From: Promethearchaeia archaeon
GTDB lineage: Archaea; Asgardarchaeota; Lokiarchaeia; Sigyniarchaeales; SOKP01
Direction of reading: 5' to 3'
DNA: 64,000 bases
Assembly: GCA_029856145.1 (NCBI GenBank)
Contig: JAHQWK010000026.1
Coordinates: forward strand, 1 to 64,000
The translations under genes and the position numbers were made by a program. Shown piece after piece: positions 8,272-25,613 of the stretch; within the stretch, counting starts at the first letter, position 1, and every line of letters begins with the position of its first letter. The notes under the pieces are model-generated. The model was not told the DNA's origin, did not search any database, and saw only the letters and a program-made list of their open reading frames with translations.

Positions 8272-8916
8272 ATGACTCAAAAAATACTAATATTAACAGG
8301 AGATTTTGTTGATGATTATGAATTAATGGTGCCTTATTCTGTTCTTACTATGTTTGGGTGTGAGGTTAAAATAATTTGTCCTGGTAGAGGAAAGGGTGAG
8401 TTTATTAAAACAGCGATTCATTACATTTCAATAGAAGATTGGGAGTTAGCTTTGAAGAGAAAACCTATTACATATTCGGAATCACTTGGGCACCCTTATA
8501 GATTAAATGATGATTTTGATTGGGAAAATGTAGAGAAAGAAGTGGGGAACTATGACGGACTTATTATTCCTGGTGGAAGAGCTCCAGAATACTTATCTTT
8601 AGTTCCTGAAGTTCAAAAACTTGTCTCTCATTTTATGGAGAATAATAAACCAATCGGTGCTATTTGCCATGGTCCTCAAGTTTTAGCTTATGCTGATGCT
8701 GCTCTTAAAGAAATTGAATTTTTAAAAGATAAGAAAATTTATCCTTATCCATCTGTAGCTCTTTCTTGTACTCTACAAGGAGCAATAATAGAGGATGAAT
8801 ATCCTGCTAATATTGCCTATACACAAGATAAATTAGTAACAGCTCCATCTTGGGATGCATTACCTGATTTTATGAAACAATTTCTTAAACTGCTTAATTT
8901 AACTACATTACCTTAA
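8272..8916 (+). CDS. DJ-1/PfpI family protein
   Basis: GDFVDDYE, IIPGGRAPEYL, AICHGPQ; start moved to MTQKILIL at 8272. Confidence 0.92.
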   Translation: MTQKILILTGDFVDDYELMVPYSVLTMFGCEVKIICPGRGKGEFIKTAIHYISIEDWELALKRKPITYSESLGHPYRLNDDFDWENVEKEVGNYDGLIIPGGRAPEYLSLVPEVQKLVSHFMENNKPIGAICHGPQVLAYADAALKEIEFLKDKKIYPYPSVALSCTLQGAIIEDEYPANIAYTQDKLVTAPSWDALPDFMKQFLKLLNLTTLP

Positions 8917-8983
8917 AAAATAAATTATTGAATTAAATTTTAAAAGTAATAAAGACGCCTGAGTTTGATAGAGATTAAAAAAA

Positions 8984-9799
8984 ATGAAAATCAATTTTCG
9001 AGAAGCTAAAAGCATTATCACTAAGAGCAAGATTCCTTCAATCGATTACGTTATAAATCCCTATACTGGTTGTCAACATGGTTGTGTTTATTGTTATGCT
9101 GAATTTATGATAAGATTTACAGGACATAAGGGAGATAAATGGGGACAGTTTTTAGATATAAAAACTTTTGATTTGAATAAAATTAAGCCTCAGAGATATA
9201 ATGGAAAAGTAATTTTGTTAAGTTCAGTAACAGATCCGTATTTACCCTTAGAAAAGAAATATCAGAATACTCGAAAAATACTGGAAAGTCTAGTTGGAAC
9301 TGAAGCTGAAATTTCTATTCTAACAAAATCGAAATTAGTTGTTAGAGATATTGATTTATTTAAGACGTTTAAAAATATTAGAGTTGGCATTTCAATTAGT
9401 ACTTTAGATGAGAATTTCGCAAGAGTTATTGAACGAGCGGCATCAAAACCTTTAGATCGATTGGAAGCGATTAAACAAATTTCTAAAGCGGGCATTGAAA
9501 CATATACATTTATATCACCTTTTTTTCCAGAAATTACTAATTTTAAAGCAATTATTGAGGAGAGTAGAGAATATACCAATCGTTTCAGCTTTGAGAATTT
9601 AAACTTCAGGCCTCACAATGTCCCTAGGATAATGAAAATAATTAAAGAGTATTATCCAGAATTGCTTCCGAAATATAAAGAAATCCAAAAAGATCGAAGT
9701 TATTGGGAGATACTTGAGCATGAGATTAAAGATTATTGTGAACAAAAGAATCTTAATTATGAGATTGAATTCCATCATGGAGGATTTTCAAAAAGTTAA
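8984..9799 (+). CDS. radical SAM protein (SplB-like/Rv2578c-type)
   Basis: NPYTGCQHGCVYCYA (CxxxCxxC), SSVTDPY, ILTKS. Confidence 0.9.
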   Translation: MKINFREAKSIITKSKIPSIDYVINPYTGCQHGCVYCYAEFMIRFTGHKGDKWGQFLDIKTFDLNKIKPQRYNGKVILLSSVTDPYLPLEKKYQNTRKILESLVGTEAEISILTKSKLVVRDIDLFKTFKNIRVGISISTLDENFARVIERAASKPLDRLEAIKQISKAGIETYTFISPFFPEITNFKAIIEESREYTNRFSFENLNFRPHNVPRIMKIIKEYYPELLPKYKEIQKDRSYWEILEHEIKDYCEQKNLNYEIEFHHGGFSKS

Positions 9800-9844
9800 A
9801 AATCAATTTAAAATATATAATAATAAAAGGAGATTTTTAGCCAG

Positions 9845-10507
9845 ATGCCAAGCAGTATATTTTCTCACCAAGCACCCGGATTGTTATTAAAAATAAAATA
9901 TCCAAGAAAGTTTGATGGAACAGCTTTATGCATCAGTACATTAGTTCCTGATTTTAATTTACTTGTTAACCCCTTTTTAACATTTGATTTTAGAAATATT
10001 ACTCATAGTCTATTAGGGCTATTAATATTTACTATACCTTTGACCATAATCTTAACAATGCTATTTTCCAGATATATTGGTCCATTTATCGCTAATATTG
10101 CGAAAAGAGGTAGTAGAATATATAAGCCGTTGAGATATTATGGTTTAGATGAATGGGATCATTTAAAGAAAAAAAAATATAATAGAAGATATTTTGTTGT
10201 TGCGTCTTATTCTGCTTTTATTGGAGGTTTAACACATCTTTTACTCGATCTTCCTGCTCATAAATATAATTTAATGTTTTTCCCTTTAGTAATGCTAAAC
10301 CCGGATTTCTTATTATATTCTATTAAAGATTTTGGTATTATCACTATTGGCCCAATACAATATAATGCTAATTTAACTGTATATCAACTTATATGGTTTA
10401 TTGAAACATTAATTACGTTTGTTATAGCTTTATATCTACTTAGATATATGAAAAAACGTAATTTAATTAAGAATTGGTATGAAGAAATACCAGAAGTGAG
10501 TCGATAG
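9845..10507 (+). CDS. DUF4184-like membrane-bound metal-dependent hydrolase, copy 1
   Basis: SHQAP, VPD, THS and THLLLD motifs; multi-TM. Confidence 0.75.
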   Translation: MPSSIFSHQAPGLLLKIKYPRKFDGTALCISTLVPDFNLLVNPFLTFDFRNITHSLLGLLIFTIPLTIILTMLFSRYIGPFIANIAKRGSRIYKPLRYYGLDEWDHLKKKKYNRRYFVVASYSAFIGGLTHLLLDLPAHKYNLMFFPLVMLNPDFLLYSIKDFGIITIGPIQYNANLTVYQLIWFIETLITFVIALYLLRYMKKRNLIKNWYEEIPEVSR

Positions 10508-11425: not shown

Positions 11426-12448
11426 ATGATAGTAAACTCATCATCAAATGCTAATAGAAAACAGGAAATCATTGCTTATATATTATTAATCGTTACTATG
11501 GTTATCTGGGGAGGTACTTGGCCAATAGGGCGATGGTTAGTATCTGAAGAAGTAGGAGGTGCAACAATTCCCCCATTCATGATAGCAGTGATCCGTTATT
11601 TTATGGCATTAATTTGCTTTTTTCTCATTCTTAGATTTAAAGAAGGAAAGCTAAATTGGCAATTTGCTAAGGAAAATTGGAAAATTTTAGCATTAATGGG
11701 GTTATTGTCTGTAACAATTTATCAAGCAGGTTATCTTATAGGTGAAATCTTCACAGCGGCAAGTGATGCTAGTATCATGGTTGCAACAAATGCTATTTGG
11801 GTAGTAATTCTTTCCAGTATATTTTTAAAATCAGAATTTTTCACTTGGAAAAAAATGATTGGAACCCTAATGGCCTTTATTGCTGTTATAATTGTCGTTG
11901 GATTTTCTCCAAATGTTGGTGTCTCAAATCGATTACTTGGAGATATTTTGATTTTAATTGCAGCATTTGCTTATGCGACCTATACCGTTACTTCCCGTTA
12001 TTTCTTGAATAAAATCAATAATAATCCTGAATTACCTAAACCAAGCTCTTTATGGATAATCACTTGGGTATCGTTTTTTGGTTTTTTAACAACCATTCCT
12101 ATAGCTTTTATTATTAGTCCAGAATTTCTTAACCCGGTGGAATATTTAAACATTCCACCTCGAATATGGATTGGGATTCTATATTTAGCATTCCTATCTA
12201 CAGTAGGCGCATATACTTTCTATTTAGAGGGAGTTAAACGCTTAAATGCTAGCAGAGCAGCCATATTTCAAACATTAGTACCATTATTTGGAGTTATTCT
12301 CTCAGCGTTATTTTTACATGAACAATTCGATGTTTTTATCTACCCCTTTTCCTTACTATCAGTAATACTAGGAATTATTCTCGTTAATCTTAAAGTCTCT
12401 AATAATAAAGGAGAAAAACTAAGTAAAAGGAAAAAAAATATTATTTAA
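11426..12448 (+). CDS. EamA/DMT family transporter
   Basis: About 10 TM in two EamA repeats; GAGGTGA RBS before the ATG at 11426. Confidence 0.9.
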   Translation: MIVNSSSNANRKQEIIAYILLIVTMVIWGGTWPIGRWLVSEEVGGATIPPFMIAVIRYFMALICFFLILRFKEGKLNWQFAKENWKILALMGLLSVTIYQAGYLIGEIFTAASDASIMVATNAIWVVILSSIFLKSEFFTWKKMIGTLMAFIAVIIVVGFSPNVGVSNRLLGDILILIAAFAYATYTVTSRYFLNKINNNPELPKPSSLWIITWVSFFGFLTTIPIAFIISPEFLNPVEYLNIPPRIWIGILYLAFLSTVGAYTFYLEGVKRLNASRAAIFQTLVPLFGVILSALFLHEQFDVFIYPFSLLSVILGIILVNLKVSNNKGEKLSKRKKNII

Positions 12449-13605
12449 TTTGTCTTTCCGCCAATATATTTTGTCATCAGTTTCATCATATTGTTTACTG
12501 GTACTTTATCATACTTTTTTACCATTGTTAAAGCTTCCTCAGGACAATTGAATGCACAAACTCCACATCCGATACATCTATCAAAATCAATTGAAATTCG
12601 CTGTTCTTCACTTTCTTCATCAATAAGTTCAATGACTTGCATAGGGCAAAGATCTATACATGTTAGACAAAATACACAATTTGATTTATCATATTCAGGT
12701 AAGAAATTCGAAGTCGCAACAACGTTTGGATCATTAAATTGCCGAATACCTCGTAACATTACACAACAATCACGATCACAGTTACATATAAATGTTGTTT
12801 TGTCAGTTACATTCTGGGTAGTATGTACTAAACCTGCTTTAGCTGCAGCAGTTAAAGTTTTAAGGGCTTCATCTTTTTTCAACTCTCTTCCAAATCCATT
12901 TTCTAGTGCATAATCCGCAAAAGTGTTAAAAGTCATACAAACATTTATAGGATAATCATTTACAGGAATTCCATCATTATGTAGTTTCATATGAGTCCTG
13001 CAGGCACAATCCATTACCGAAATCCGACGTGATTTCTCCACTAGATTTTTAACTTGTTCAAATGGTAATATTCTGTTTTTTATAGGTTCAACTTCTTGAT
13101 CAACCTCAACGAGTTTTCCTTTACCTCTACTAATCGTCTCATCTATTGCATCTTGCTCTACAAATACTCTCATGAATGGATAGGAGGACCTGAATGTATT
13201 TACAATATTCCCTTCATTATAGTATTTCTCATATTCCTCAGTAAATATTCTTAGAACGTCTTTTTCCTCTTTTAAAGCTCTCTCATGATTAGAAAAATAT
13301 AGTTCAAAAAGACCTGGAAGTAAAGGAAACATTGAGTAGGTAGTTACTTCGTCTCTAGTAGCAGAAAATACTCTTTGAGTACGTGCCATCTCTATTAACT
13401 TTTGCTCAATCTCATCAATAGGGCGTTTGAGTTTTTTAGCAATTTTTTGCGCTGTGAATCTATCCAAGTATGGTCCGTTAAAAACCAATAAAATCTGAGC
13501 TTCCTCATCTGAATATAGAGCCTTTAGAATCTTCTCTATTTCTTCCGACCAAGGAACTCCCATCTTCTTCGCTATTAATTCATAATTTCCAGCCATATTT
13601 ATCAC
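12445..13605 (-). CDS. Fe-S protein with N-terminal HTH-like region, Cys-rich core and 2x[4Fe-4S] ferredoxin domain
   Basis: DCACR, CMTF, GLVH, ICNCDRDCC, CVFCLTCIDLCP, CIGCGVCAFNCP. Confidence 0.8.
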   Translation of the reverse strand: MINMAGNYELIAKKMGVPWSEEIEKILKALYSDEEAQILLVFNGPYLDRFTAQKIAKKLKRPIDEIEQKLIEMARTQRVFSATRDEVTTYSMFPLLPGLFELYFSNHERALKEEKDVLRIFTEEYEKYYNEGNIVNTFRSSYPFMRVFVEQDAIDETISRGKGKLVEVDQEVEPIKNRILPFEQVKNLVEKSRRISVMDCACRTHMKLHNDGIPVNDYPINVCMTFNTFADYALENGFGRELKKDEALKTLTAAAKAGLVHTTQNVTDKTTFICNCDRDCCVMLRGIRQFNDPNVVATSNFLPEYDKSNCVFCLTCIDLCPMQVIELIDEESEEQRISIDFDRCIGCGVCAFNCPEEALTMVKKYDKVPVNNMMKLMTKYIGGKTN

Positions 13606-13803: not shown

Positions 13804-14253
13804 ATGGTAAATAATTTGAAGCTTGTAAACAAAATCTTAGAAACTCTTAGTAAATTAACATTTTTAGATAAAAGAAGAAAAATCACCCACAAAGATATCA
13901 AACTTTATCCTTCAGAAATTCATCTTTTACTATTTATTTATCATATTCAAGATACAAATATAACCAAAATTGCTGAACACCTTGGCTTGACCAAGGGAGC
14001 AATTTCTCAAACTCTCTCACGTCTTAATAGGAAGGGAATAATTATAAAAAGAACTGAACCATCCAAAAAAAACCAATTACAAATTCAATTTACGAATAAA
14101 GGAAAGGTGTTGATGGAACATGTAATTGAATTTAGAAATTCTCTTGAAACTAAATATTTAAATTATTTGGAAACGAAATCAGATGAAGAAAAACAGACAA
14201 TTTCAGATTTTCTTGATACAGTAGTTTCAGTAATGCATAAATCCAAAAATTAA
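13804..14253 (+). CDS. MarR family transcriptional regulator
   Basis: LYPSEIHLL, NITKIAEHLGLTKGAISQTLSRL wHTH. Confidence 0.93.
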   Translation: MVNNLKLVNKILETLSKLTFLDKRRKITHKDIKLYPSEIHLLLFIYHIQDTNITKIAEHLGLTKGAISQTLSRLNRKGIIIKRTEPSKKNQLQIQFTNKGKVLMEHVIEFRNSLETKYLNYLETKSDEEKQTISDFLDTVVSVMHKSKN

Positions 14254-14376: not shown

Positions 14377-14919
14377 ATGGATACGTCAAAATCAGAAAGG
14401 ATAGTACAAAAGTTCTTACAAGAAGAACCAAAGTATAAAAGAAAGATACAAGAATTTTCAGGAACTTTTGAAACGACTCTAGAAAGGATCTTTCCTCTTT
14501 TATGTCCTGCTCGTGAAGCTGATTGGATCCCTGGATGGGATTCGGAGTTAATTTATACTAAATCTGGTTATGCAGAAGACAAGTGTGTATTTCGCACTAA
14601 TAAATCAAATTCTGCAGGTGAAGGTTTATGGACTTTCACGGGGTTCAAGTTAAATGAATATGTTGAATTTGTAAGATTCCAACGAGATATGTTGTTACAT
14701 TGTAAAATATGCTTAACTCAAAATAAAGATGGAACAACTACGACAACTTGGAAAACCATTTCAACATCATTATCTGAAAAAGGAAATAAAGAAATTGAAA
14801 GAATGTCTGTTGATAAAAAACACAATCCCGTTATTCAATTGATGGATTATTACTTGAAAAATGGAAAGATGATTTCAAAACTTTCACTTATGAAGAATAA
14901 GATACATGGTCAGCATTAA
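14377..14919 (+). CDS. SRPBCC/START-like ligand-binding protein
   Basis: IFPLLCPAREADWIPGW motif; helix-grip-like pattern. Confidence 0.65.
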   Translation: MDTSKSERIVQKFLQEEPKYKRKIQEFSGTFETTLERIFPLLCPAREADWIPGWDSELIYTKSGYAEDKCVFRTNKSNSAGEGLWTFTGFKLNEYVEFVRFQRDMLLHCKICLTQNKDGTTTTTWKTISTSLSEKGNKEIERMSVDKKHNPVIQLMDYYLKNGKMISKLSLMKNKIHGQH

Positions 14920-14963: not shown

Positions 14964-15458
14964 TTATTCAGGAATAATAATTGAATGATCTTCTTTTATT
15001 CGGTCTAAAACAATTTCAGTTTTGACTTCTTCTACTCCTGGAAGATTACGAAGTTTTTCAATAAGACCCATAGAATCTGAATGATTCAAACATTTTGCCA
15101 TAATAAATAAAGGATATTCACCAGTAACTACATAAGCATACTTGATTTTTTCCATTCCCTCGATCTCTTGTTTCACATGCTCTAATGGTTTTGTAGCATT
15201 TACTCTTAAAGACGCCATAACCATTTCTCTATAACCTAACTGGCGGCAGTCTATTAACGCAACATATTTTTTAATTAAATCCTTTTCTAATCTTTGAATA
15301 CGAGATCTAATAGCTGTCTGGCTTTTCTCTTCTTCTAAATTTTCTTTAATTTTTACTTTTATTTGGTTAATAGTTATTTTTGCATCTTCTTGTAAAAGTT
15401 CAAGAATCTGTTTGTCTACTTCATCGATTATCTTATTTGCTGAATTTGTAGTAACCAT
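14964..15458 (-). CDS. Lrp/AsnC family regulator
   Basis: IDEVDKQILELLQEDAK HTH; VTGEYP RAM domain; divergent from the sulfur/Hdr cluster. Confidence 0.93.
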   Translation of the reverse strand: MVTTNSANKIIDEVDKQILELLQEDAKITINQIKVKIKENLEEEKSQTAIRSRIQRLEKDLIKKYVALIDCRQLGYREMVMASLRVNATKPLEHVKQEIEGMEKIKYAYVVTGEYPLFIMAKCLNHSDSMGLIEKLRNLPGVEEVKTEIVLDRIKEDHSIIIPE

Positions 15459-15733
15459 TTTTTAATCCCTTATCTATTTTTTTCAATATTTAATAATTAC
15501 TTGATTGGTTATTTAAGTTTCAAGTAATTATAAGAAGTCTTGATTTATAATTTTTTTCACTAAAATTACATATTAATTTAGTAATATTTTCTAAATAAAT
15601 CATTCTTTTATAAATAAAAAAACTATTATTTAAATATGAATTAGTATTTTTTACTAATAAAGCTATCATAATTAAATTAAAGTGATAGTGAAATAAAAAA
15701 AAATAGTAGAAAAAACTAAAAAAAGTGAAAAAA

Positions 15734-15958
15734 ATGGCTGATAAAACATTTGACTATACTGGTTTAAAATGTCCGATGCCAGTTTTGAAAACTAAAAAGG
15801 AATTAAAAAACTTAACTTCTGGACAAGTTATAGAAGTAATCTCTGATGATGTCGGGGCAAAAAAGGATATTCCAGCGCTTCTTAATAAAATTGGCGATGA
15901 ATTAGTAGAACTTAGAGAAGATAATGGCAACTTAATTTTCGTCATTAAGAAGGCTTAA
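15734..15958 (+). CDS. tusA: TusA/SirA sulfur carrier
   Basis: FDYTGLKCPMP (CPxP); DDVGAKKDIP. Confidence 0.93.
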   Translation: MADKTFDYTGLKCPMPVLKTKKELKNLTSGQVIEVISDDVGAKKDIPALLNKIGDELVELREDNGNLIFVIKKA

Positions 15959-15987
15959 AACACATTATACGGAGTAAGGATATTAAT

Positions 15988-16356
15988 ATGTCTAAATATG
16001 TTTTCTTTATTAGCACGGAACCTTACAAATATCAAGCTGTAGATTCTCTGATAGAAATAGGAAAAGCTGCACTAAGAAAGGGGCATGAAATAACGGGTAT
16101 ATTCTTCTTTGGAACTGGTGTTTACAATCTTAAAAAGGAGATTAATTGTGGAACTACTATAAGAAACATCCCAGAGAAAATTGAGAAATTTTCCTATGAG
16201 AATAAAATTCCAGTTGCAGGTTGTAGTACATGGGTTAGTTTAACAGGACTTAAAGAACCTGAATTCATTGAAGGTGCGTCTGAAGAGGGATTAGGGGATT
16301 TTTCAAACTGGACAATTAAAGCTGACAAATTAATTGTATTTGGAGCTGGTGGTTAA
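15988..16356 (+). CDS. dsrE: DsrE/TusD-like sulfurtransferase subunit
   Basis: GHEITGIFFFGTGVYN; conserved Cys in VAGCSTW; ADKLIVF. Confidence 0.85.
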   Translation: MSKYVFFISTEPYKYQAVDSLIEIGKAALRKGHEITGIFFFGTGVYNLKKEINCGTTIRNIPEKIEKFSYENKIPVAGCSTWVSLTGLKEPEFIEGASEEGLGDFSNWTIKADKLIVFGAGG

Positions 16357-16361
16357 AAATT

Positions 16362-16730
16362 ATGGTAGAATCTGTGGTAATAATAAGTGATCAATCGCCT
16401 ATTGGAAGAAATTCGGCAGTTGAGGCTATTAGAATCGGATCGGGATTCACTGCTCTTGGAGAATTTATTGACTGCAAAATTGTATTTATGGGAGATGCTG
16501 TGTATCTATTTAATAAAAATTGCGACCCTGAAGCTGTGGGAATGGACCCTCTTGCTGAAGTATTAGAAATGGCTGATTTATCTGATTTAGAAGTATTTAT
16601 GATTGATTCTTCTTTAACTGACGCGGGATTAACCAAAGCTGATATGATTGACTATGAAAACTTGAAAATCATTGGATATGATGAATTAACAGATTTAATT
16701 GCTAATGCTGATACGTGTTTTAGATATTAA
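16362..16730 (+). CDS. dsrF: DsrF/TusC-like subunit
   Basis: SPIGRNSAVEAIR, VFMGDAVY, DSSL..AGL; lies between dsrE and dsrH. Confidence 0.8.
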   Translation: MVESVVIISDQSPIGRNSAVEAIRIGSGFTALGEFIDCKIVFMGDAVYLFNKNCDPEAVGMDPLAEVLEMADLSDLEVFMIDSSLTDAGLTKADMIDYENLKIIGYDELTDLIANADTCFRY

Positions 16731-16746
16731 GGGAGGATAGAAAAAG

Positions 16747-17088
16747 ATGTCAGAAAATCTTGATATGATATATTTGTTTGGATTTAGTGGGTTAACGGGA
16801 AATCAATTACAGAGATTAATACCTATTTTAAAAAGCCAGATTAAAAAGAATACGAGACTTGGATTAGTTTTAATTCACGATGGCGTAATAGGCATAACAA
16901 CAAAGGGAAAAATACCAAAACAAATGGAAGAACTTCTCAGTTTAGATGTGGCTGTGTTTGCTATGAGATCAGATATGAGAGCTCGCGGTATTGCTCCAGA
17001 ATATGTACATGACAAAATTAAGTTTATAGAATATGATGATCTAATAGATGTTATAGATGCTACGCCAAAAGTTATTTCTTGGATGTAG
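16747..17088 (+). CDS. dsrH: DsrH/TusB-like subunit
   Basis: LIHDGV, DMRARGI, IEYDDLIDVI, terminal VISWM. Confidence 0.85.
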   Translation: MSENLDMIYLFGFSGLTGNQLQRLIPILKSQIKKNTRLGLVLIHDGVIGITTKGKIPKQMEELLSLDVAVFAMRSDMRARGIAPEYVHDKIKFIEYDDLIDVIDATPKVISWM

Positions 17089-17207
17089 CAAGGTAAGAAA
17101 ATTAAATTCGCAAAATTTTTTGAAAAATTCTGGCTAAAACCAGAAAATATAGAGTATTAAACAAACAAAAAGGAAATTTTTAAAAAAAACAAAAAAAGGT
17201 GGTATAT

Positions 17208-17630
17208 GTGGCTGAAACTGAAACAATAAATTTTATAGTAAAGGATAAGTCATTTGAGAAGTTTGCGATGATGGCTATCCTTGGTTCAACAGGCGACGCG
17301 ATGGATGTGAAAATGAACTTTTTCTTTACCTTTTGGGGTTTGAATTTATTAACAAAAAAATTTAAGCCAAAAGTTGCTGGAATGCCTACTCCTATGAAAG
17401 GCATGGGAGCAAAAATATTTAGAAAAAGGATGAAAAAGTTTGGGATAGAAGATCCATGGGCTTTAATTAAAGACGGTGTCGAAAGCGGTAATTTGAAGTT
17501 ATATCCATGTCAAATGACCATGGATTTAATGAAAATTAAGCATGAAAATATAATCGATTTTGCTGAAGAACCTGTTGGTGCTGCTTCATTTTTAGAAATG
17601 AGTAATGGCGGCAGAATAGTTTCATTATAA
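17208..17630 (+). CDS. DsrE2/YrkE-like sulfur carrier
   Basis: FFTFWGL, LYPCQMTMDLM, VGAASFLE; GTG start after an AGGTGG RBS. Confidence 0.88.
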   Translation: MAETETINFIVKDKSFEKFAMMAILGSTGDAMDVKMNFFFTFWGLNLLTKKFKPKVAGMPTPMKGMGAKIFRKRMKKFGIEDPWALIKDGVESGNLKLYPCQMTMDLMKIKHENIIDFAEEPVGAASFLEMSNGGRIVSL

Positions 17631-17681
17631 ATTAAAATAAATTTTTTTTTTTATTTTTTATATTAAAAAAGGTGATGATAA

Positions 17682-18239
17682 ACGTCTGATGTAGAAGAAC
17701 AAGCAAGGGAATATAAAACAGACGAAGATTTTAATAAAGATTTTTTTAAAGATATTGAAAGAAAATCAAATATTTGGCAGTGCATTCAATGTGGTACATG
17801 CACAGCGAGCTGTGAAAGTGGTAGATGGACTGCTTTAAAGACTCGTTCAATTATTAGAAAAGTTATTTTAGGAGATTTATCGGTATTAAATGATCCTGAT
17901 ATATGGTTGTGTACTACATGTTATCAGTGCTATGAACGATGTCCGCGTGATGTAAGACCTACAGATGTTATTATGGAGTTGCGAAATTATGCTACTAAAT
18001 TAGGGAATATTTCTCCTAATCATAGGGCTGTTGTAGGGTATTTAAAAAACTTTGGACATGCCGTACCGATAAATGAAGAAGTAAAAAAACGAAGAGTCGA
18101 ATTAGGATTAGAAGAATTACCTCCTACTGCGTTTAAGTTTAAACAGGAGGGGGATGATAAAGATTTAAAAAATTTTGAAGAACATATGTTCGATTTACCT
18201 CCAGTTAAGGAGGAAAAAAAGGAAGAAGAGGAGACGTAA
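17682..18239 (+). CDS. hdrC: heterodisulfide reductase subunit C, apparent ACG start
   Basis: Frame is open from an ACG at 17682, preceded by an in-frame TAA and an AAGGTGA RBS; CIQCGTCTASC and WLCTTCYQCYERCPR. The ORF track only calls it from 17907. Confidence 0.9.
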   Translation, partial: TSDVEEQAREYKTDEDFNKDFFKDIERKSNIWQCIQCGTCTASCESGRWTALKTRSIIRKVILGDLSVLNDPDIWLCTTCYQCYERCPRDVRPTDVIMELRNYATKLGNISPNHRAVVGYLKNFGHAVPINEEVKKRRVELGLEELPPTAFKFKQEGDDKDLKNFEEHMFDLPPVKEEKKEEEET

Positions 18240-18242
18240 AAA

Positions 18243-19163
18243 ATGGTAAAAGAAAACATATTTGCTTTCTTTTTAGGTTGTTTGATGCCAAATCGATATC
18301 CTGCTATTGAAAAATCAACGAAATTTGTAATGGAAAAACTAGGATACGAAATTTTAGATATGGAAAGAGCAACATGTTGTCCTGCGCCAGGAGTCTTCAG
18401 ATCATTTAATAAAATTGATTGGATGGTTGCTGCGGCAAGAAATTTATGTATAGCAGAACAATTAGATGCTGACATATTGACTGTTTGTAATGGATGTTTC
18501 GGAACACTCCAAGAGGTTAATAAACACTTGAAAACAAATGAAGAGCATCGTGAAATGGTAAATGAAAAATTAAAACTCATCGGAGATTATGAGTTTAAGG
18601 GAACGATAGATGTTCGACATATTGCTGAAGTGTTAGGTTATGAGATAGGTCCATGGGGGATTGAAGATCATATAGTTCGAAAAGTTAATGCTAGAGCTGC
18701 AATACATTATGGTTGTCATTTTCTGAAACCTACTAGAATTAGAGAGATTGAAAGCTCAGAAGGACCAACAATTGTAGAAGAATTCGTTGAAGCTTTAGGA
18801 ATTCAATCTGTACGATTCAATGAACAATTAACTTGCTGTGGTGCTGGAGGAGGTGTTAAAGCCTATGATGGTAATGCAAGTATGACTATATTTGCAGAGA
18901 AGATGAAAAATATTGATGATGTAAAGCCAGATTTTATATTAGATATTTGCCCCTTCTGTCATCTCCAATATGAAACGGGACAAGATTACTTGAATAAAAA
19001 TAAGAACTGTAATTACGATTATCCTGTAATTCATCTTTCTCAATTAACTGCCTATTGTATGGGGATGGATAAAGAATTTGTTGGTTTACATTATCAACTA
19101 ATGGGGAAAGATTATATCTTTGGGGGAGAAGAAATAAGAAAAGAAATAAAGGAGGCAATTTAA
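18243..19163 (+). CDS. hdrB: heterodisulfide reductase subunit B
   Basis: FFLGC, TCCPAPG, CNGC, HYGCH, TCCGAGGG, CPFC (two CCG domains). Confidence 0.95.
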   Translation: MVKENIFAFFLGCLMPNRYPAIEKSTKFVMEKLGYEILDMERATCCPAPGVFRSFNKIDWMVAAARNLCIAEQLDADILTVCNGCFGTLQEVNKHLKTNEEHREMVNEKLKLIGDYEFKGTIDVRHIAEVLGYEIGPWGIEDHIVRKVNARAAIHYGCHFLKPTRIREIESSEGPTIVEEFVEALGIQSVRFNEQLTCCGAGGGVKAYDGNASMTIFAEKMKNIDDVKPDFILDICPFCHLQYETGQDYLNKNKNCNYDYPVIHLSQLTAYCMGMDKEFVGLHYQLMGKDYIFGGEEIRKEIKEAI

Positions 19164-19211
19164 TTGACAGTAAAAAATCAGAATATAAAAGAAACAGAAG
19201 AGGTTGAGAGT

Positions 19212-21194
19212 ATGGCAACATCTGAAGATTCTGAAGAACCTAGAATTGGTGTTTTTGTTTGTCATTGTGGTCATAATATAGCTGGAACAGTTGATGTGGC
19301 TGAAGTTGCTGAGTATGCTAAAACTTTACCGAATGTTGTTAAATCTGAACATTATATGTTTATGTGTTCCAAACCAGGAGTTCAAATGGTTAAAGATTCT
19401 ATAAAAGAATTAGGTGTTAATCGAACAGTGGTAGCTTCTTGTTCTAAAAATCAACATGGCAAGACCTTTGCTAGAGCAATTGAAGAAGTGGGATTAAATA
19501 AACACCGTCATCAACAAGTTAACGTAAGAGAATATAATAGTTGGGTTCATAAGAAAGAAAAAGAAAAAGCAACTCAAAAAGCTATGAAATTGGTTGAAGC
19601 AGGGGTAAATCGAGCTAGAAAGTTAGAAGATGTAGAAACAAGAAGAATTCCAACAACAAAAGCGGCATTAGTTATAGGAGCTGGAATTGCTGGACTTCGA
19701 TCGGCTTATGATATGGCAGAATTAGGTATTCCTGTATATCTAGTGGAAAAGGAATCAACTATTGGAGGCCATATGACACGATTAAATAAAACATTCCCTA
19801 CTTTAGAATGCCCACAATGTTCAATATCCCCTCTCACGAATGGAGTAGCTAATCATCCTTTAATAGAACTTTATACTAATGCTCAAATCAAGAATGTTGA
19901 GGGATCGTTAGGAAACTTTGAAATTGAGATTGAAATTAAACCTAGGTATGTTAAGGATAATTGTACTTCTTGTGGCGAATGTGCTACTCATTGTCCAGTC
20001 GAATTACCGAGCGAATGGGATATGGGGATGTCTATGAGGAATGCAATTTATAAAGCATATCCACAAGCAATACCCGCTACTTATGTAAGAGATAAGAAAA
20101 ATTGTATTGAATGTAATACATGTATTAATATTTGTCCTGTTCAAGCTATTGATTTTTCAATGAAACCAGAAACAAAAACTGTGAAAGTTGGATCCATCAT
20201 TGTTGCTGCTGGATATGCTGAATATAATCCATCTGAAATTGAACCCTATCATTATGAACAAGAAGGATATGAAGATGTTATTACTCAGTTAAAATTAGAA
20301 CGAATGATGTCTCCAACATCGCTTACTAATAGTGAAGTTCTACGACCCTCTGATGGAAAAATCCCAAAAAGTGTAGTCATGATCCAATGTGTAGGGAGTA
20401 GAAATGATCAAGTTGGAAATCAATATTGTACTGGTGTATGTTGTAAATTTGCAATAAAAAATGCAAGAATTATTAAAGAAAAGTATCCTGATACTGAGGT
20501 ATCGATATGTTATATAGATATCAGAACACCAGGATTAAATTTTGAAGAATTGTATAAATCTGCTCAGGAGATTGGAGTGAGATTTATACGAGGAAGACCG
20601 TCCGAAATCATAAAAGATCCTATTTCAGGAGAATTATATGTAATTGTTGAAGATACATTAAGTCAGACACCTTTGAAACTAAAAGCAGATATTGTAGTAT
20701 TGAGTGCCGCAATGGTGCCACCTGAGGGTATTGGTCCTTTAGGATCTAAACTTCATGTCTTGCGTTCAAAAGAAGGATTTCTAAAAGAATTTCATATTAA
20801 AATGAATCCAACCTTAAGTAGTAAGGGAGGAGTTTTCTTAGCGGGAACAATTCAAGGCCCAAAGGATATTACAGAAACTGTTGCTCATGCGGGAAATGCT
20901 GCTGCTTTAGCTGCAGCTCCTTTAGTTAAAGGTTATATCGAAAGGGAAATGTTAGTTCCTTCAATTAATTATGATTTATGTGTAAATTGCGGATTATGTA
21001 AAACTGTATGCGCTCCTGCAGCAATAGATATTGATGAAAATGGTGCTCCAGTTGTAAATGAAATTGCGTGTAAATCTTGTGGCATGTGTATGCCAGTGTG
21101 TCCTACAGGAGCTATTCAATTAATTAATTTTAGAGATGATCAACTATTAGATGAAATTATTGCCGTATCTGGCGGAGGTGCTGTTTGCGAATGA
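19212..21194 (+). CDS. hdrA: heterodisulfide reductase subunit A
   Basis: IGVFVCHCGHNI, GAGIAG, KTFPTLECPQC, inserted and C-terminal ferredoxins, IQCVGSR, QGPKDI; ATG at 19212 has a GAGG RBS (alternative TTG at 19164). Confidence 0.96.
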   Translation: MATSEDSEEPRIGVFVCHCGHNIAGTVDVAEVAEYAKTLPNVVKSEHYMFMCSKPGVQMVKDSIKELGVNRTVVASCSKNQHGKTFARAIEEVGLNKHRHQQVNVREYNSWVHKKEKEKATQKAMKLVEAGVNRARKLEDVETRRIPTTKAALVIGAGIAGLRSAYDMAELGIPVYLVEKESTIGGHMTRLNKTFPTLECPQCSISPLTNGVANHPLIELYTNAQIKNVEGSLGNFEIEIEIKPRYVKDNCTSCGECATHCPVELPSEWDMGMSMRNAIYKAYPQAIPATYVRDKKNCIECNTCINICPVQAIDFSMKPETKTVKVGSIIVAAGYAEYNPSEIEPYHYEQEGYEDVITQLKLERMMSPTSLTNSEVLRPSDGKIPKSVVMIQCVGSRNDQVGNQYCTGVCCKFAIKNARIIKEKYPDTEVSICYIDIRTPGLNFEELYKSAQEIGVRFIRGRPSEIIKDPISGELYVIVEDTLSQTPLKLKADIVVLSAAMVPPEGIGPLGSKLHVLRSKEGFLKEFHIKMNPTLSSKGGVFLAGTIQGPKDITETVAHAGNAAALAAAPLVKGYIEREMLVPSINYDLCVNCGLCKTVCAPAAIDIDENGAPVVNEIACKSCGMCMPVCPTGAIQLINFRDDQLLDEIIAVSGGGAVCE

Positions 21195-21643
21195 GTGAAT
21201 GTGAAACCACTGACGAATTGATAAAAGAAAAGATTCAAGATGTTGTTGTTTTTATGTGTAACGAATGTGGTCAAGGATCTGCTAATACTGCTGGTGTTGC
21301 ACGAATAAATTATGATCCCGCAATAAGAATAATCAGAATTCAATGTACAGGTCAAATTGGTCCTATTCAAATTATGGATGCATTAAATAATGGGGCAGAT
21401 GCTGTTGCTTGCGTTGGATGCTGTTTAGGAGCTTGTCATTTTTTTAATGGAAATGTACTTTCAATGCATAGAATTAAACTGATGAAGAAGTTATTTAAAG
21501 AGTTAGGATATAGTGATCAATTTGTAAACCAATATACTTCTCGAGCAGCAGAAGGCGAAACCGCTGTAGGCGATTTTGAAGATATTATAGATAGATTATC
21601 AACTGCAATTAAAGATGAGGGGACGATTAAAGATGGATGTTAA
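21191..21643 (+). CDS. mvhD: MvhD/FlpD [2Fe-2S] subunit
   Basis: FMCNEC, RIQCTGQI, GADAV..GCCLGACHF..GN; ATGA overlap with hdrA. Confidence 0.9.
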   Translation: MSECETTDELIKEKIQDVVVFMCNECGQGSANTAGVARINYDPAIRIIRIQCTGQIGPIQIMDALNNGADAVACVGCCLGACHFFNGNVLSMHRIKLMKKLFKELGYSDQFVNQYTSRAAEGETAVGDFEDIIDRLSTAIKDEGTIKDGC

Positions 21644-22868
21644 AGTGTTTCAATTCAATGGTTGTAATAAATGTTTTAACGAAACATTACTCCTAAAGTT
21701 GGATTCTAATTATAAAGTACGGTTTATAGAAGAACCACAAAAATGGAAAGGAGAAAATACAGAAGTTGCGGTAATCACGGGATATCTATTACCAAATGAT
21801 AAAGAACATCTCGAGAGAATTAAAGTAAACTCAGAACGAGTTATTGCATATGGAGATTGTACAACCATGGGAGGTGTATTTGCATTAGCAAATCAACATG
21901 GTTATGAAATTACTCCTTTAAAAGATTTAATTGATAATCAAATAAATGTTAATGGTTGTTTAGGGGAAATTGAAGAATTAAAAGCGGTGATTGACAGAGA
22001 AGAACCATCAAAACTAAGGCCTCTCTGTGAGGTGTGTGCACGTAGGGCAACTTGTGAATACTTAGATGCTGTACAACGTCAGATTGAATCAGATGATAAC
22101 GAAACGTGTTACAATGATTTAGGATTTCTGTGTAATGGATTTATAGCTAAAGAATGTAAAGAACGATGTATCAATTACAACACACCTTGCAGAGGTTGCC
22201 AACCAATGGTGGAAAGATCTGGTATTAGAATGTTAGGAATGTTCGGCACTCTTATGGGAAATATTGAAGTTGCTACTGAGCACTCTGAAAAGGGTGCAAC
22301 TGATAAACTTGGAGATGAAGAAGATGATGTAACAAGAAGTTTGCCAGATATTCTTGGTAACTTCTTTAGATTCACACTACCTACCTCTGGTTTGCCTAAA
22401 GGAAGAGTAAAATCTTCAGGTACAATATTAGAAGATGTATTTACAGGAAGATTAATTGAAGAATTGCCGTTAATTTCTGGATTATTAGGAGGAAGTAAGT
22501 CAATTTCATTAACTCTAAAAATTATTGAATCCTATGAAGAAGCGAATCAAATTGAAGTAAGCGAGAAAACAAAGAAATATCGTGAAGAATTATTGAAATT
22601 AGAAACAGATCTAAAGAAAGCTTTAGAAAATGAGGATCCAAAACAGTATAAAGAAATAACTAGTAAAATTCGAAAAATTGCTGGTAATATGAATTTATCT
22701 AACATCTTCTTTGGTGGATTTAAATCCCAAATTAATGAAAATGACAATTTTGATGATTACAAAACCCACGTTTTTGAAGTGATTGAAGGAACCTATAAGA
22801 ACGGTTCAGTTGAATATACCATAGATCCTAATGGGATAGTTAAAGAAATTAAGATAAAAGGGGGATAA
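21633..22868 (+). CDS. MvhG/FrhG-like Fe-S subunit with long C-terminal extension
   Basis: GCNKC, YGDCTTMGG, NGC, CEVC, C..C..C..C..PCRGC; about 190-aa tail not typical of MvhG. Confidence 0.78.
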   Translation: MDVKVFQFNGCNKCFNETLLLKLDSNYKVRFIEEPQKWKGENTEVAVITGYLLPNDKEHLERIKVNSERVIAYGDCTTMGGVFALANQHGYEITPLKDLIDNQINVNGCLGEIEELKAVIDREEPSKLRPLCEVCARRATCEYLDAVQRQIESDDNETCYNDLGFLCNGFIAKECKERCINYNTPCRGCQPMVERSGIRMLGMFGTLMGNIEVATEHSEKGATDKLGDEEDDVTRSLPDILGNFFRFTLPTSGLPKGRVKSSGTILEDVFTGRLIEELPLISGLLGGSKSISLTLKIIESYEEANQIEVSEKTKKYREELLKLETDLKKALENEDPKQYKEITSKIRKIAGNMNLSNIFFGGFKSQINENDNFDDYKTHVFEVIEGTYKNGSVEYTIDPNGIVKEIKIKGG

Positions 22869-22870
22869 AT

Positions 22871-25342
22871 ATGAGTTTTGAACTATTGAAAAAAGAAATT
22901 ATTGATGTTGGATTATGCCAAGGTTGTGGATTATGTGTCGGCTTCTGTAAGCATATTGAGATGGAAATATTACGGCCTACATTAAAGGATTATTGTATAC
23001 TTGAAAGAAATGGACAAGATTGCGGTAAATGTTATCAAAGTTGTCCTCAAGTTATCCAGAAAAAGTTTAAACAAAAACTACCTATAGCAATTTATTCTTT
23101 AAGAAGTAAAAATCCTGAAATTTTGGCAAAAGCTGCTAATGGTGGTGTAGTTACAACCCTAGCTAAAAATCTATTAGATAGTCAAACACTTGCTGAAATA
23201 ATTATGGTCCAAGATATAGATGAAAAACCTCAAGCAGATATTGTAACTGATCCTGATGAAGTTGTAAAAAAGGCTGGAGTAGTATACGGACGTTCAGGAG
23301 TTTTAGAAAAATTAGTAGAAGTTGTTGGAGAGACTTTCGAACCCGTAGGAATTGTTGGCGTTCCTTGTGAGATGAGAGGTGCTGCTGAATTGGAGGAAGA
23401 AATGAATAGAGAAATCTTAAAAATTGGTTTATTTTGTAATTCTCACATGCGAACAGAACAAACTGACAAAGGAATAGTATGTTCTCCTTGCTGTAGTGGT
23501 TGTCCATCAGGGGTAAATGCACAAGGATATATTTCCTTAATTAGACAAGGTCAATATCAAGACGCTGTTGAGTTAATCCGTGAAAGTAACCCACTCCCTT
23601 CCATATGTGGAAGAATTTGTACTAATGAATGTGAACATAGTTGTACTTTAATTGGAGATGACCATCCAGTAGCAATCCGAGAACTTAAGAAATTTGTTAC
23701 TGAATGGGAGATAAAACAAGATAAAAAGAATAGTATGAAAGGTAAAAGAAATATTAAAAAAGGTGCTAAAAAGGTGGCAATTATTGGTTCTGGACCAGCA
23801 GGGTTAACTGCGGGATATTTTTTAAGAAGAATGGGTTATGCACCAACTATTTTTGAAAAATCAGATCAAACAGGAGGAATGTTAAGATTCGGTGTACCGC
23901 AATTTAGATTACCAAATTATGTATTAGATTACGATGTACAAAATATTAAAAATTCAGGGGTCGAAATAATTCTAAATAAGCCATTAGGACCCGAAATGAC
24001 GATTGAAGACTTAAAAAATAATGGATTTGAAGCTATTTTCATAGCTACTGGCCAATACAAACCTCGAACACTTCATTTAGAAGGAGAAGACCTTCCTAAT
24101 GTTCATGTAGCAATTACTTTTTTAATGGATAGAAAATACCGCTATTGGGAAAATAAAGAAGAGTTTAAAGGAAAAACTCTGGGGATAATTGGTGGTGGTC
24201 CTGTAGCAATTGATGTTGCTCAAACTGCCCTTCGATTAGGTGCAGCCAAAGTTCATCTTGTTGATATAATGTCAGAAGAGCAACTTAAACTAGTTTTAAA
24301 GGATATTCCTAAAAATGAAATGGATTATATGAAATATCATTTTACTACATCAACTTCTAGAATTACTCAGAACAATGAAGGGAAACTGGTGTTAAATTGC
24401 TATAAAATTGAATGGGGAACTCCCGATGAAAATGGAAAAAGACCGTTAAATAAGATTGAAGATTCCGATTATGAAATTCAAATTGATTCAATTATAATTG
24501 CTGTTGGTCAAGCTGTTGATTTTGAACAGATTGATATTGCTACTGATAATAAGTTAGAAAAAGAGCGAAATAAGATTAAAATAAATGAAGTTACCTTTGA
24601 AACTAACATTCCTGGAGTATTTGCAGGTGGAGACATAATTAGCAATTCAAAAGCAGTAGCAATTGCGGCAATAGCCCATGGTAAAGAAGCTGCCTTTTCA
24701 ATAGATAGATTCCTAAAAGGAGAGGATTTAAAAACAGGACGATATAAACAAGATAAAATGTTTTTCACAGGACCTAAAAAATCTCCAAAAGATTATTCTC
24801 CTAAACCAGGAAATCTAGAAGAAGCTACTGAAGAAATTCAGTGGAGTTTTGAAGAGATTGATCAAATGTTTAATGAAGATATGGCATTACAAGAAGCTCG
24901 CAGATGTTTAAGTTGTAATCATTTTTGCTCTCATTGTCAAGATTTTCCAGCAATTTATTCAGATTTAACTGCTGGTGAAGTTGGTTCTCAAAAAGGGTAC
25001 ACAACAATTGTAGTCTGGACTGATAGAGGTAAAGAAATTGTAGAGACTGCAATTAGAAACGGTTTATTTGAAGAAGGCGAAGTGAACGAAGTCGAATTAA
25101 ACAAAGCAATTAACCTTAAGTCAAAACGAGAACTTTTGACTTTTGAAAAAACTCCAAGGCAACGAATTTTAGATTATATCACCCTTCAAGGATCAAGTAC
25201 TATAAGTGACCTGACAAAACAATTAGATTTAGAACCAAAAAAGGTCAGATATGAAGCACTTCGACTAGCTCAATTAAAGCAAATTGAAATGAAAGTTGAT
25301 CCTGAAATGGATGAGCCATTATTTACTTTAATATGTGATTAA
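22871..25342 (+). CDS. ferredoxin-FrhB/FdhB-like protein with inserted GltD/SudA-type flavoprotein module and C-terminal wHTH
   Basis: AANGGVVTTL, GVPC, GLFC | PCCSGCP, ICGRIC, GSGPAG, GGGPVA, FAGGD, RRCLSC | CSHCQDF..DLTAGEVGS..GYTTIVVWTDRG | wHTH. Confidence 0.85.
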   Translation: MSFELLKKEIIDVGLCQGCGLCVGFCKHIEMEILRPTLKDYCILERNGQDCGKCYQSCPQVIQKKFKQKLPIAIYSLRSKNPEILAKAANGGVVTTLAKNLLDSQTLAEIIMVQDIDEKPQADIVTDPDEVVKKAGVVYGRSGVLEKLVEVVGETFEPVGIVGVPCEMRGAAELEEEMNREILKIGLFCNSHMRTEQTDKGIVCSPCCSGCPSGVNAQGYISLIRQGQYQDAVELIRESNPLPSICGRICTNECEHSCTLIGDDHPVAIRELKKFVTEWEIKQDKKNSMKGKRNIKKGAKKVAIIGSGPAGLTAGYFLRRMGYAPTIFEKSDQTGGMLRFGVPQFRLPNYVLDYDVQNIKNSGVEIILNKPLGPEMTIEDLKNNGFEAIFIATGQYKPRTLHLEGEDLPNVHVAITFLMDRKYRYWENKEEFKGKTLGIIGGGPVAIDVAQTALRLGAAKVHLVDIMSEEQLKLVLKDIPKNEMDYMKYHFTTSTSRITQNNEGKLVLNCYKIEWGTPDENGKRPLNKIEDSDYEIQIDSIIIAVGQAVDFEQIDIATDNKLEKERNKIKINEVTFETNIPGVFAGGDIISNSKAVAIAAIAHGKEAAFSIDRFLKGEDLKTGRYKQDKMFFTGPKKSPKDYSPKPGNLEEATEEIQWSFEEIDQMFNEDMALQEARRCLSCNHFCSHCQDFPAIYSDLTAGEVGSQKGYTTIVVWTDRGKEIVETAIRNGLFEEGEVNEVELNKAINLKSKRELLTFEKTPRQRILDYITLQGSSTISDLTKQLDLEPKKVRYEALRLAQLKQIEMKVDPEMDEPLFTLICD

Positions 25343-25376
25343 AACTAAAACTAATAAATATTAAGAGGTAAAGAAT

Positions 25377-25613
25377 ATGAAATTTGATATGGAATTAAAT
25401 GTCTGCGGGTCAGTATGCCCTGTTCCTGCTTTAAAAACTAAAAAACAACTTATGAAAATGAGGCCTGGAACTGTTTTAAAAGTAATAACAGATTACAAAC
25501 CTGCTAGTGAATCTGTTCCACGTGATTTAGCAAAAACAAAGCATAAACATTTAGGAACAGACTTCATAGAAGACGATGAGCAATGGAATATGTATTTTGA
25601 AGCAGTAAAGTAA
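25377..25613 (+). CDS. tusA: second TusA/SirA sulfur carrier
   Basis: LNVCGSVCPVP (CPxP), TDYKPASESVP. Confidence 0.9.
   Translation: MKFDMELNVCGSVCPVPALKTKKQLMKMRPGTVLKVITDYKPASESVPRDLAKTKHKHLGTDFIEDDEQWNMYFEAVK

Follow-up and report, generated by a model that had tools for sequence, protein, structure and literature searches.

We analyzed a window of 64,000 nucleotides, which is contig C26 of a 3.55-Mb, 97%-complete genome of a Loki-type Asgard archaeon (~30% G+C), and focused on a gene cluster that joins sulfur carriers of the TusA and DsrE families to a soluble heterodisulfide reductase (Hdr) module, HdrCBA-MvhD. According to our best reading, to which we give about an even chance of being right, this cluster would encode a reductase of carrier-bound sulfane sulfur that is driven by NADH or reduced coenzyme F420 (F420H2) and coupled to ferredoxin. 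Genes in the window were called from an open reading frame (ORF) listing and Pfam scans, and NCBIfam models were scored against their cut-offs. The twelve co-oriented genes of the original prediction and its divergent Lrp regulator gene were all present, every one of them with Pfam support (Table 1). The carrier cysteines, said to be intact, are in place as well: CPMP and CPVP in the two TusA proteins, AGCST in DsrE and YPCQMT in DsrE2.

Based on gene content, motifs, synteny, missing partners and changes in the coenzyme B (CoB) pocket, we infer a single complex, its substrate, the direction of the reaction and its coupling to ferredoxin as follows. HdrABC-MvhD would form a soluble complex, independent of a hydrogenase, with a lineage-specific input pair. 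The first member, an Fe-S protein resembling MvhG but deprived of the [NiFe] partner, may act as a wire or scaffold, and the second, an FrhB-type flavoprotein with an inserted GltD/NfnB-type NAD(H) module (the fusion protein), would accept the electrons. One electron path would reduce ferredoxin. With neither DsrC nor the heterodisulfide of coenzyme M (CoM) and CoB, CoM-S-S-CoB, at hand, HdrB would act on TusA2 and/or DsrE2 and reduce the sulfur that they carry as a persulfide, polysulfide, thiosulfonate or mixed disulfide. This sulfur would come from TusA1-DsrEFH, and H2S and the free carrier thiol would be released. The outcome would be a cytoplasmic electron sink for a fermentative Loki archaeon in sulfidic sediment, with no need for a hydrogen-consuming partner.

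The relationship of HdrA and HdrB to the methanogen type and to the sHdr type of sulfur oxidisers was judged from pairwise scores. HdrB matched methanogen HdrB structures with E values of 2e-89 (5ODC_B) to 4e-90, and its CCPAPG, CNGC, CCGAGGG and CPFC motifs align to 5ODC_B. Its scores against methanogen HdrB reached 303-306 bits, versus 168-214 bits against the genome's five paralogues; the genome holds at least five other HdrB paralogues, which are 31-39% identical to the cluster HdrB. Residues 24-665 of HdrA align end to end with 5ODC_A (E 4e-194), compared with an E value of 2.5e-36 to the sHdrA-like 6TJR. HdrA also keeps the equivalents of the bifurcation residues E356 (LERM) and K409 (AIKN), and its ECPQC site has cysteine, not selenocysteine. 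HdrC contains eight cysteines in two CX2CX2CX3C motifs, and the FlpD domain of MvhD has its cysteine cluster. Overall, these matches indicate that the HdrABC core is of the methanogen type and not of the sHdr type, in agreement with the methanogen-type HdrCBA-MvhD core that had been proposed.

Next, the linkage between carriers and Hdr genes was surveyed in 135 genomes of the window's family (f1), using the MvhG-like gene and DsrE2 as markers. The MvhG-like gene was found in 64 genomes, DsrE2 in 73 and both in 55. Leaving the window's own genome aside, 54 genomes have the two markers, and in 48 of them these lay on one contig and strand, 4.15-4.8 kb apart (~4.4 kb). Contig ends account for seven of the nine genomes in which only the module was found. 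Every locus with enough flanking sequence has the same order, Lrp / TusA1-DsrEFH-DsrE2-HdrCBA-MvhD-MvhG-like-fusion-TusA2. The most divergent form (L032, 47% identity) reads DsrE2-Lrp-HdrCBA-MvhD-MvhG-like-fusion-TusA, with the Lrp gene co-oriented and placed between dsrE2 and hdrC. TusA2 lies directly 3' of the fusion gene in all loci but one (L020), where a TusA2-like gene is directly 5' of it. This arrangement is far beyond chance, and the carrier linkage persists in forms that are only 47-57% identical. Lack of linkage in related genomes had been set beforehand as grounds for refutation; what we found is a tight and persistent linkage of the sulfur carriers to hdr, in a fixed order.

The carriers themselves evolve at different rates. 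TusA2 is the most conserved of the small genes (72-96% identical), compared with 30-95% for the faster-evolving TusA1 and DsrEFH. Among the latter, TusA1 has Cys16 as its sole cysteine (orthologues 57-95% identical), DsrE keeps its active-site cysteine in all orthologues, and DsrH, which is without cysteine, is the fastest-evolving member (30-88%). The DsrE2-like gene is single-copy in the genome and always lies 5' of hdrC, also in the most divergent locus. Every orthologue of TusA2 has a second cysteine, which in the family loci is Cys10 in a CG[SL]VCP motif. In two divergent forms (L032, 8637-8870; L033, 4030-4263), TusA2 has Ser10 along with Cys75 (FECVK), and in L020 (5871-6074) Cys75 is present and position 10 lies beyond the contig end. 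The CG[SL]VCP motif suggested that TusA2 might be a substrate with two cysteines, like DsrC; this idea is weakened by the Ser10 of the divergent forms, though they have Cys75 instead.

The cluster is also lost as a block. In three genomes with deletion derivatives, G351 (L041 12809-14886), G307 (L042 4959-8402) and the closed genome G324 (L039 5346-7316), everything from hdrC to tusA2 is gone, so that the block has been deleted in at least three lineages. In G351, TusA1-DsrEFH-DsrE2 is intact and what comes after it is no more than the 3' third of tusA2, G307 has a 3' tusA2 scar directly after dsrE2 with dsrEFH decayed or fragmentary, and G324 ends in a dsrE2 with an altered C terminus. The scars in G351 and G307, which keep only the 3' part of tusA2, show that this gene was lost together with the Hdr block, and we count this in favor of the carrier link. 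Since the block is gone and the upstream carriers are kept, the genes from hdrC to tusA2 come and go as a single unit, and the upstream carriers are a separate unit able to persist without it.

As for the wider distribution, full-length copies among 301 Asgard genomes are confined to f1, to two members of its sister family (f2) and to a single f24 genome. A comparison with 1.84 billion representative proteins gave no more than two further full-length clusters with the architecture of the fusion protein (57% and 47% identity), and the remaining matches cover the GltD part alone. Therefore, the cluster is an accessory of one Lokiarchaeial family, present in about half its species, with rare relatives, and not a trait of Asgard archaea in general. 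Four loci labelled Odin-, Heimdall-, Thor- and Hermodarchaeota (L014, L015, L017 and L004, respectively) carry the cluster at 76-86% protein identity. An Asgard-wide reading, prompted by copies 76-83% identical under NCBI names such as Odin, Thor, Heimdall and Hermod, was rejected on genome taxonomy, and these labels of other classes are likely due to mislabelled metagenome-assembled genomes or misbinned contigs; the f24 genome (G295, contig C137) has 9% contamination.

To compare the hdrC start and the spacer in front of it, 13 species-level loci, including the window, were aligned. In the window, hdrC has no ATG, GTG or TTG before position 17907, a start that would remove the first cluster motif of HdrC, and the codon at 17682 is ACG. 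Across the alignment, this position is ATG in seven loci and ACG in six, which besides the window (17671-17700) are L003, L005, L010, L011 and L017. A GGTGA Shine-Dalgarno sequence 6 bases 5' of the start is common to all 13 (GGTGAT in the window). Gene callers shorten the ACG hdrC to 146 amino acids, versus 183-187 for the ATG orthologues. The view that hdrC is frameshifted or broken was rejected, given that ACG occupies the exact start position behind the same Shine-Dalgarno sequence in six species and ATG stands there in seven. Since ACG and ATG alternate at one spot behind a conserved Shine-Dalgarno sequence, the ACG is probably a conserved near-cognate start and not an error, or possibly the site of a +1 shift from an upstream ATG-ATA-A. 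We also observed a run of 8 to 14 T at the same dsrE2-hdrC position in all 13 loci, a possible archaeal terminator or promoter element. A promoter and terminator scan of the bacterial type found no more sites than in shuffled sequences, its consensus being bacterial and unsuited to an archaeal host. From hdrC through the fusion gene, the intergenic gaps are 3, 0, -10, -11 and 2 nucleotides with the ORF starts used here, with tusA2 34 nucleotides further; the genes from hdrC to the fusion gene are translationally coupled.

The classical partners of such genes were sought in the whole genome. DsrC/TusE (PF04358) had no match, and neither McrA nor ComA was found, although routes to CoM that are independent of ComA would escape such a search. 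No NIR_SIR sulfite reductase and no pathway for a sulfite product were found, and the search for MnmA (PF03054) returned only partial PP-loop matches of 21-25 bits. The window has no linked LbpA, and the genome's two genes of the GcvH family are located elsewhere, on contigs C9 and C14. A [NiFe] large subunit (NiFeSe_Hases) is absent from the window cluster and from every related locus; the genome's only MvhA is encoded on contig C13, next to an MvhG of its own. For F420 synthesis, both CofD and CofH score above cut-off. The absence of dsrC/tusE, a lipoate-binding protein and a [NiFe] large subunit from the window was thus borne out, and extends to the whole genome for DsrC/TusE. With a single HdrCB pair, a long HdrA and no hydrogenase catalytic subunit, the cluster fits neither the sHdr nor the Mvh-Hdr pattern, as had been noted.

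The substrate pocket of HdrB was compared with that of the methanogen enzyme. In methanogen HdrB, three arginines (Arg14, Arg201 and Arg240) hold CoB, and the substrate-contact residues used here were taken from the 2026 structure-activity paper that describes them (PMC13261682). In all 16 orthologues compared, Arg201 is replaced by Lys and Arg240 by Thr or Ser, while Arg14, the glycines on the CoM side and Phe233 are kept. Since the two arginines are replaced and the other residues conserved, the pocket has retained its small anionic side and lost the anchor for the CoB phosphate. The orthologues are 75-92% identical, with strongly conserved CCG motifs and substrate-side residues. An unlikely but serious alternative is that the Hdr module reduces a low-molecular-weight (hetero)disulfide of these archaea, as an NADH- or F420H2-dependent version of the methanogen enzyme, and that the carriers are only co-regulated neighbors serving general sulfur trafficking or the hydrogenase-linked Hdr. 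HdrB scores above the cut-off of the NCBI CoB-CoM HdrB equivalog (TIGR03288, 364 versus 345 bits) and is ~55% identical to methanogen HdrB by hand count. The retained CoM-side residues and Arg14 also fit a small disulfide, as do the T-tract between dsrE2 and hdrC and the upstream carriers that outlive the loss of the Hdr block. However, no ComA or McrA was found, and the anchors for both the phosphate and the carboxylate of CoB are changed in all orthologues. Moreover, tusA2 belongs to the Hdr unit, in which no other small gene is as conserved, and was deleted with it, and the linkage of carriers to hdr persists at 47% identity; all of this speaks against a small disulfide.

The electron-input arm consists of two unusual proteins. 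The MvhG-like gene starts at 21633, a stop codon being located just upstream in many orthologues. Residues ~99-267, as numbered in the ORF starting at 21615, align to MvhG of 5ODC and 9SW2 over the regions of the proximal, medial and distal clusters, and 12 of its 13 cysteines are invariant in an alignment of 14 sequences. The protein has ~150 extra C-terminal residues, no large subunit lies beside its gene in any locus, and it is only 22% identical to the true MvhG of the genome. For the C-terminal extension, Pfam gave nothing meaningful, and a search of the ESM Atlas led only to the Promethearchaeota cluster to which the protein itself belongs. In an AlphaFold2 model built from the same alignment (mean predicted local distance difference test score of 52.5), only the N-terminal flavodoxin-like part was confident.

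The second protein had been described as an FrhB::GltD fusion. Both modules are present, but they are not joined end to end: a GltD insert of ~480 amino acids, with GltD itself at residues ~190-620, sits inside FrhB, between FrhB_N (75-146) and FrhB_C (~668-739), followed by a tail of ~75 amino acids with weak winged-helix matches. The protein combines a 2x[4Fe-4S] N terminus, FrhB halves with the FrhB cluster, and an NfnB/GltD-like unit with two GltD-type clusters and the FAD and dinucleotide folds (Fer4_20 plus Pyr_redox_2). Its best matches in the PDB are of the Nfn/Bfu type (NfnA/NfnB/GltD, E 1e-66 to 1e-85), along with FrhB and Fsr matches. It carries the flavin adenine dinucleotide (FAD) motif GSGPAG at position 306 and, for the dinucleotide, the motif GGGPVA at 441. 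Five aligned NADPH structures have YRR behind the second beta strand, where the fusion protein has DIM, with an Asp at the strand end. An Asp at this place is the classical NADH signature. Therefore, the change from YRR to DIM points to NADH, and the dinucleotide site looks NADH-type rather than NADPH-type; given the F420 synthesis genes, an F420 site may exist as well. Of the donors proposed earlier, NAD(P)H or F420H2, the pyridine-nucleotide module is present and apparently of the NADH type, and the YRR that selects NADPH is missing.

Since the insert resembles Nfn/Bfu-type enzymes, the complex could instead be mainly a bifurcating enzyme of the transhydrogenase type working among NADH, F420 and ferredoxin, with HdrBC lacking a disulfide substrate and TusA2 acting as an assembly or regulatory accessory. 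It has two potential bifurcating flavins, the FAD of HdrA and the NfnB-like FAD of the GltD module, and the host makes F420. The disulfide substrate of the MetFV-HdrABC-MvhD complexes of acetogens is itself debated. Nevertheless, we consider this explanation improbable, given how strongly the CCG motifs and the substrate side of HdrB are conserved, and it leaves five carrier genes and a second Hdr-carrier locus unexplained.

This second locus, on contig C13 of the same genome (L026 3529-11963), has HdrB-HdrC-MvhA-MvhG (with an MvhG of 437 amino acids) divergent from TusA-TsuA(YeeE)-DsrE-DsrF-DsrH-HypE, so that the sulfur relay genes are flanked by the structural genes of the hydrogenase on one side and by a maturation gene on the other. 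Its transporter scores highest for the thiosulfate transporter TsuA. The last gene, which is AIR-synthase-like, was tried as SelD, a selenium reading that was rejected because the gene is HypE (384 bits, cut-off 252). Contig C1 has a third, isolated DsrEFH set, so that two of the three sets in this genome, in which DsrC was not found, adjoin Hdr modules. We take the C13 locus as independent support for our reading from within the same genome. Separately, contig C25 (L028 2269-5031) encodes a 920-amino-acid protein composed of an HdrC-like ferredoxin, a GltD module and two HdrB-like CCG domains, which would be an NAD(P)H-to-CCG reductase in one polypeptide; its gene adjoins an aldehyde:ferredoxin oxidoreductase gene. 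A nearby HdrA gene (8446-10158) has an in-frame TGA at the second cysteine of CSIC, probably selenocysteine.

Several observations weigh against a reductase of carrier-bound sulfur. Since G351 keeps TusA1-DsrEFH-DsrE2 intact after loss of the Hdr block, these carriers also have a role independent of Hdr. The conserved T-tract and the survival of the upstream carriers suggest that carriers and Hdr are probably transcribed separately, as two or three units. In TusA2, the position of the second cysteine is not fixed, and the cluster is without a sulfur importer. HdrB, being above its equivalog cut-off, is very close to CoM-S-S-CoB reductases, and a small-molecule heterodisulfide is a possible substrate. 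Finally, S0 or polysulfide/H2S, at about -270 mV, is a much weaker acceptor than CoM-S-S-CoB, at about -140 mV, and NADH lies at -320 mV. Bifurcation from NADH to ferredoxin with an acceptor at the S0 level would therefore be marginal. Only tentatively do we propose that the cluster represents an energy-conserving cytoplasmic sulfur reduction of a new type, in which a flavin-bifurcating HdrABC driven by NADH or F420H2 would use a persulfide or thiosulfonate on TusA2/DsrE2, in place of a coenzyme disulfide, as a high-potential acceptor and co-reduce ferredoxin.

Two further explanations have very little probability. The cluster might work oxidatively like sHdr, oxidising carrier-bound sulfane sulfur and passing electrons to NAD+ or ferredoxin, as the TusA and DsrE-family carriers that accompany sHdr systems would suggest (PMC11094781, PMC4175335). 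The single HdrCB pair, a full-length HdrA in place of the short sHdrA, and the lack of a linked LbpA and of a route for sulfite all speak against this. The host group is also known as strictly anaerobic and fermentative. Alternatively, the carriers could serve biosynthetic thiolation (2-thiouridine [s2U] in tRNA, Fe-S clusters, molybdenum cofactor) or selenium delivery, with hdr adjacent by accident or through shared regulation: TusA-TusBCD is the s2U relay of Escherichia coli, TusA2 and the C13 TusA score best, below cut-off, against YedF-type selenium-metabolism models, and Loki archaea use selenocysteine, as the TGA of the C25 HdrA paralogue would illustrate. This is hardly compatible with a genome in which no TusE/DsrC and only weak PP-loop matches to MnmA were found, with two DsrEFH sets beside Hdr modules, with a synteny invariant over 48 genomes or with the TsuA-like transporter of C13.

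Table 1. Features of the sulfur carrier-Hdr cluster, with positions in the window
Feature	Position	Strand	Evidence and remarks
Lrp/AsnC-family regulator	14964..15458	-	Pfam AsnC_trans_reg + HTH_AsnC; divergent from cluster
tusA1, single-Cys TusA (CPMP)	15734..15958	+	Pfam TusA E 4e-24
dsrE (TusD-like), Cys79 in AGCST	15988..16356	+	Pfam DsrE; NCBIfam TusD/DsrE below cut-off
dsrF	16362..16730	+	Pfam DsrE/DsrF family; 5-nt gap to dsrE
dsrH	16747..17088	+	Pfam DsrH
dsrE2-like carrier (DrsE_2 family), Cys104 in YPCQMT	17199..17630	+	Pfam PF13686 E 1e-21
T-tract (11 T) in 51-nt dsrE2-hdrC spacer; possible terminator or promoter element	17642..17652	+	sequence
hdrC, two CX2CX2CX3C motifs, ACG at start position	17682..18239	+	translation; 8 Cys
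hdrB, two CCG domains (non-cubane [4Fe-4S] sites)	18243..19163	+	Pfam CCG x2
hdrA, full-length five-domain type, FAD + Fe-S clusters, 676 aa	19164..21194	+	PDB match 5ODC_A
mvhD ([2Fe-2S] connector)	21191..21643	+	Pfam FlpD E 6e-31; overlaps hdrA and MvhG-like gene
MvhG-like Fe-S protein, 411 aa	21633..22868	+	Pfam Oxidored_q6
FrhB_N-GltD/NfnB-like-FrhB_C-winged-helix-like tail, 823 aa	22871..25342	+	Pfam, PDB matches
tusA2, Cys14 (CPVP) + second Cys	25377..25613	+	Pfam TusA

Some neighboring genes were also recorded. On the 5' side of the Lrp gene, the window has a MarR regulator and a 180-amino-acid ORF without a family (13804-14253 and 14377-14919), which adjoin Lrp in G324 as well (75-77% identity) and not in most other loci. 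A gene on the minus strand (12445-13605) encodes a protein of 386 amino acids that ends in a 2x[4Fe-4S] domain and has no Pfam match in its N-terminal part. In locus L015, a second, divergent DsrEFH set (20642-21739, 39-47% identity) lies 8 kb 3' of the cluster, beside a gene for an NMT1-type substrate-binding protein.

Soluble Hdr genes are common in non-methanogens, which raises the question of what they reduce. The present cluster poses this question cleanly, since it has a near-methanogen HdrABC in a genome with no CoM/CoB pathway, methyl-coenzyme M reductase (MCR) or DsrC found, and with carriers welded to the operon. If these carriers are the substrate, flavin-based bifurcation would extend to protein-bound sulfane sulfur. 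Loki-type Asgard archaea in sulfidic sediments would then have an electron sink that does not depend on a partner, possibly a biochemical basis for hydrogen-sulfur syntrophy scenarios of eukaryogenesis. The reach of this is limited, as the trait is accessory, belongs to one family and is often lost. The complex would consist of seven or eight soluble proteins that could be co-expressed, which makes the reading testable.

The cluster shares features with several known systems and matches none of them in full. FlxABCD-HdrABC of Desulfovibrio is NADH-dependent and proposed to reduce DsrC. Both systems thus have an NADH-linked, hydrogenase-free HdrABC with an MvhD-type connector and a proposed protein-bound sulfur substrate, but the input of the cluster is not homologous to FlxABC, and small TusA/DsrE carriers stand in place of DsrC. 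Compared with NfnB/GltD-type flavoproteins, the inserted module has the two [4Fe-4S] clusters and the FAD and dinucleotide folds, without the YRR. From the TusA-TusBCD-TusE-MnmA relay, TusE was not found in the genome, and MnmA gave only the partial PP-loop matches. HdrA, HdrB, HdrC and MvhD are close homologues of those in the methanogen MvhADG-HdrABC (PDB 5ODC), with all cofactor ligands; that complex, however, couples a [NiFe] MvhA with MvhG, whereas the cluster is without MvhA, its host is without MCR or ComA as far as found, and its CoB anchors are altered.

Mechanistically, the closest precedent is Elp-Hdr, where Mvh is replaced by a scaffold, an FdhA without catalytic activity, together with an F420 flavoprotein of the FdhB type (PMC12350162). 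Elp-HdrABC and FdhAB-MvhD-HdrABC (PDB 8RVU, 7BKB; PMC12350162) share with the cluster a flavoprotein of the FrhB/FdhB family and a disabled scaffold in place of the hydrogenase. However, their scaffold is a truncated FdhA and not an MvhG relative with an extra C-terminal domain, and in the cluster the FrhB domains are split by the GltD/NfnB NAD(H) insert and followed by the winged-helix-like tail, with five sulfur-carrier genes attached. The sHdr-LbpA system (PMC11094781, PMC4175335, PMC6067878) likewise has a CCG Hdr enzyme encoded with TusA and DsrE-family transferases, with protein-bound sulfur as its presumed substrate. It has shdrC1B1-A-H-C2B2, a linked LbpA and a short sHdrA, none of which is present here, while the cluster has a long bifurcating HdrA, MvhD and an NADH/F420 arm, and its direction is probably reductive.

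A 2025 preprint on the cultured Loki archaeon Nerearchaeum marumarumayae proposes a model with a Group 3c [NiFe] hydrogenase-Hdr and H2-driven reduction of TusA/DsrE-bound sulfur (10.1101/2025.07.22.663070). The C13 locus matches this model, and the idea of a cytosolic Hdr reducing TusA/DsrE-bound sulfur is shared. However, the model uses H2 via MvhAG, whereas the window cluster stands apart as an operon without a hydrogenase, in which HdrABC, the donor arm and the carriers are all its own; it is not described in that preprint, and our full-text literature searches gave no description of it. In a sediment metatranscriptome, Loki HdrABC and frhB-like transcripts occurred in sulfidic layers without MvhADG transcripts, and a different, Flx-like donor was suggested (10.1101/826495). 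Overall, Hdr with TusA/DsrE neighbors (sHdr), hydrogenase-free Hdr donors (Elp, Fdh, Flx) and the sulfur-carrier idea for a Loki archaeon are already known. What is new is that the CoB anchors are altered in an otherwise canonical HdrABC of the methanogen type, along with an MvhG-like subunit that is an orphan, a GltD-in-FrhB donor with a winged-helix-like tail found almost nowhere else, and a dedicated TusA that is lost and gained with the operon.

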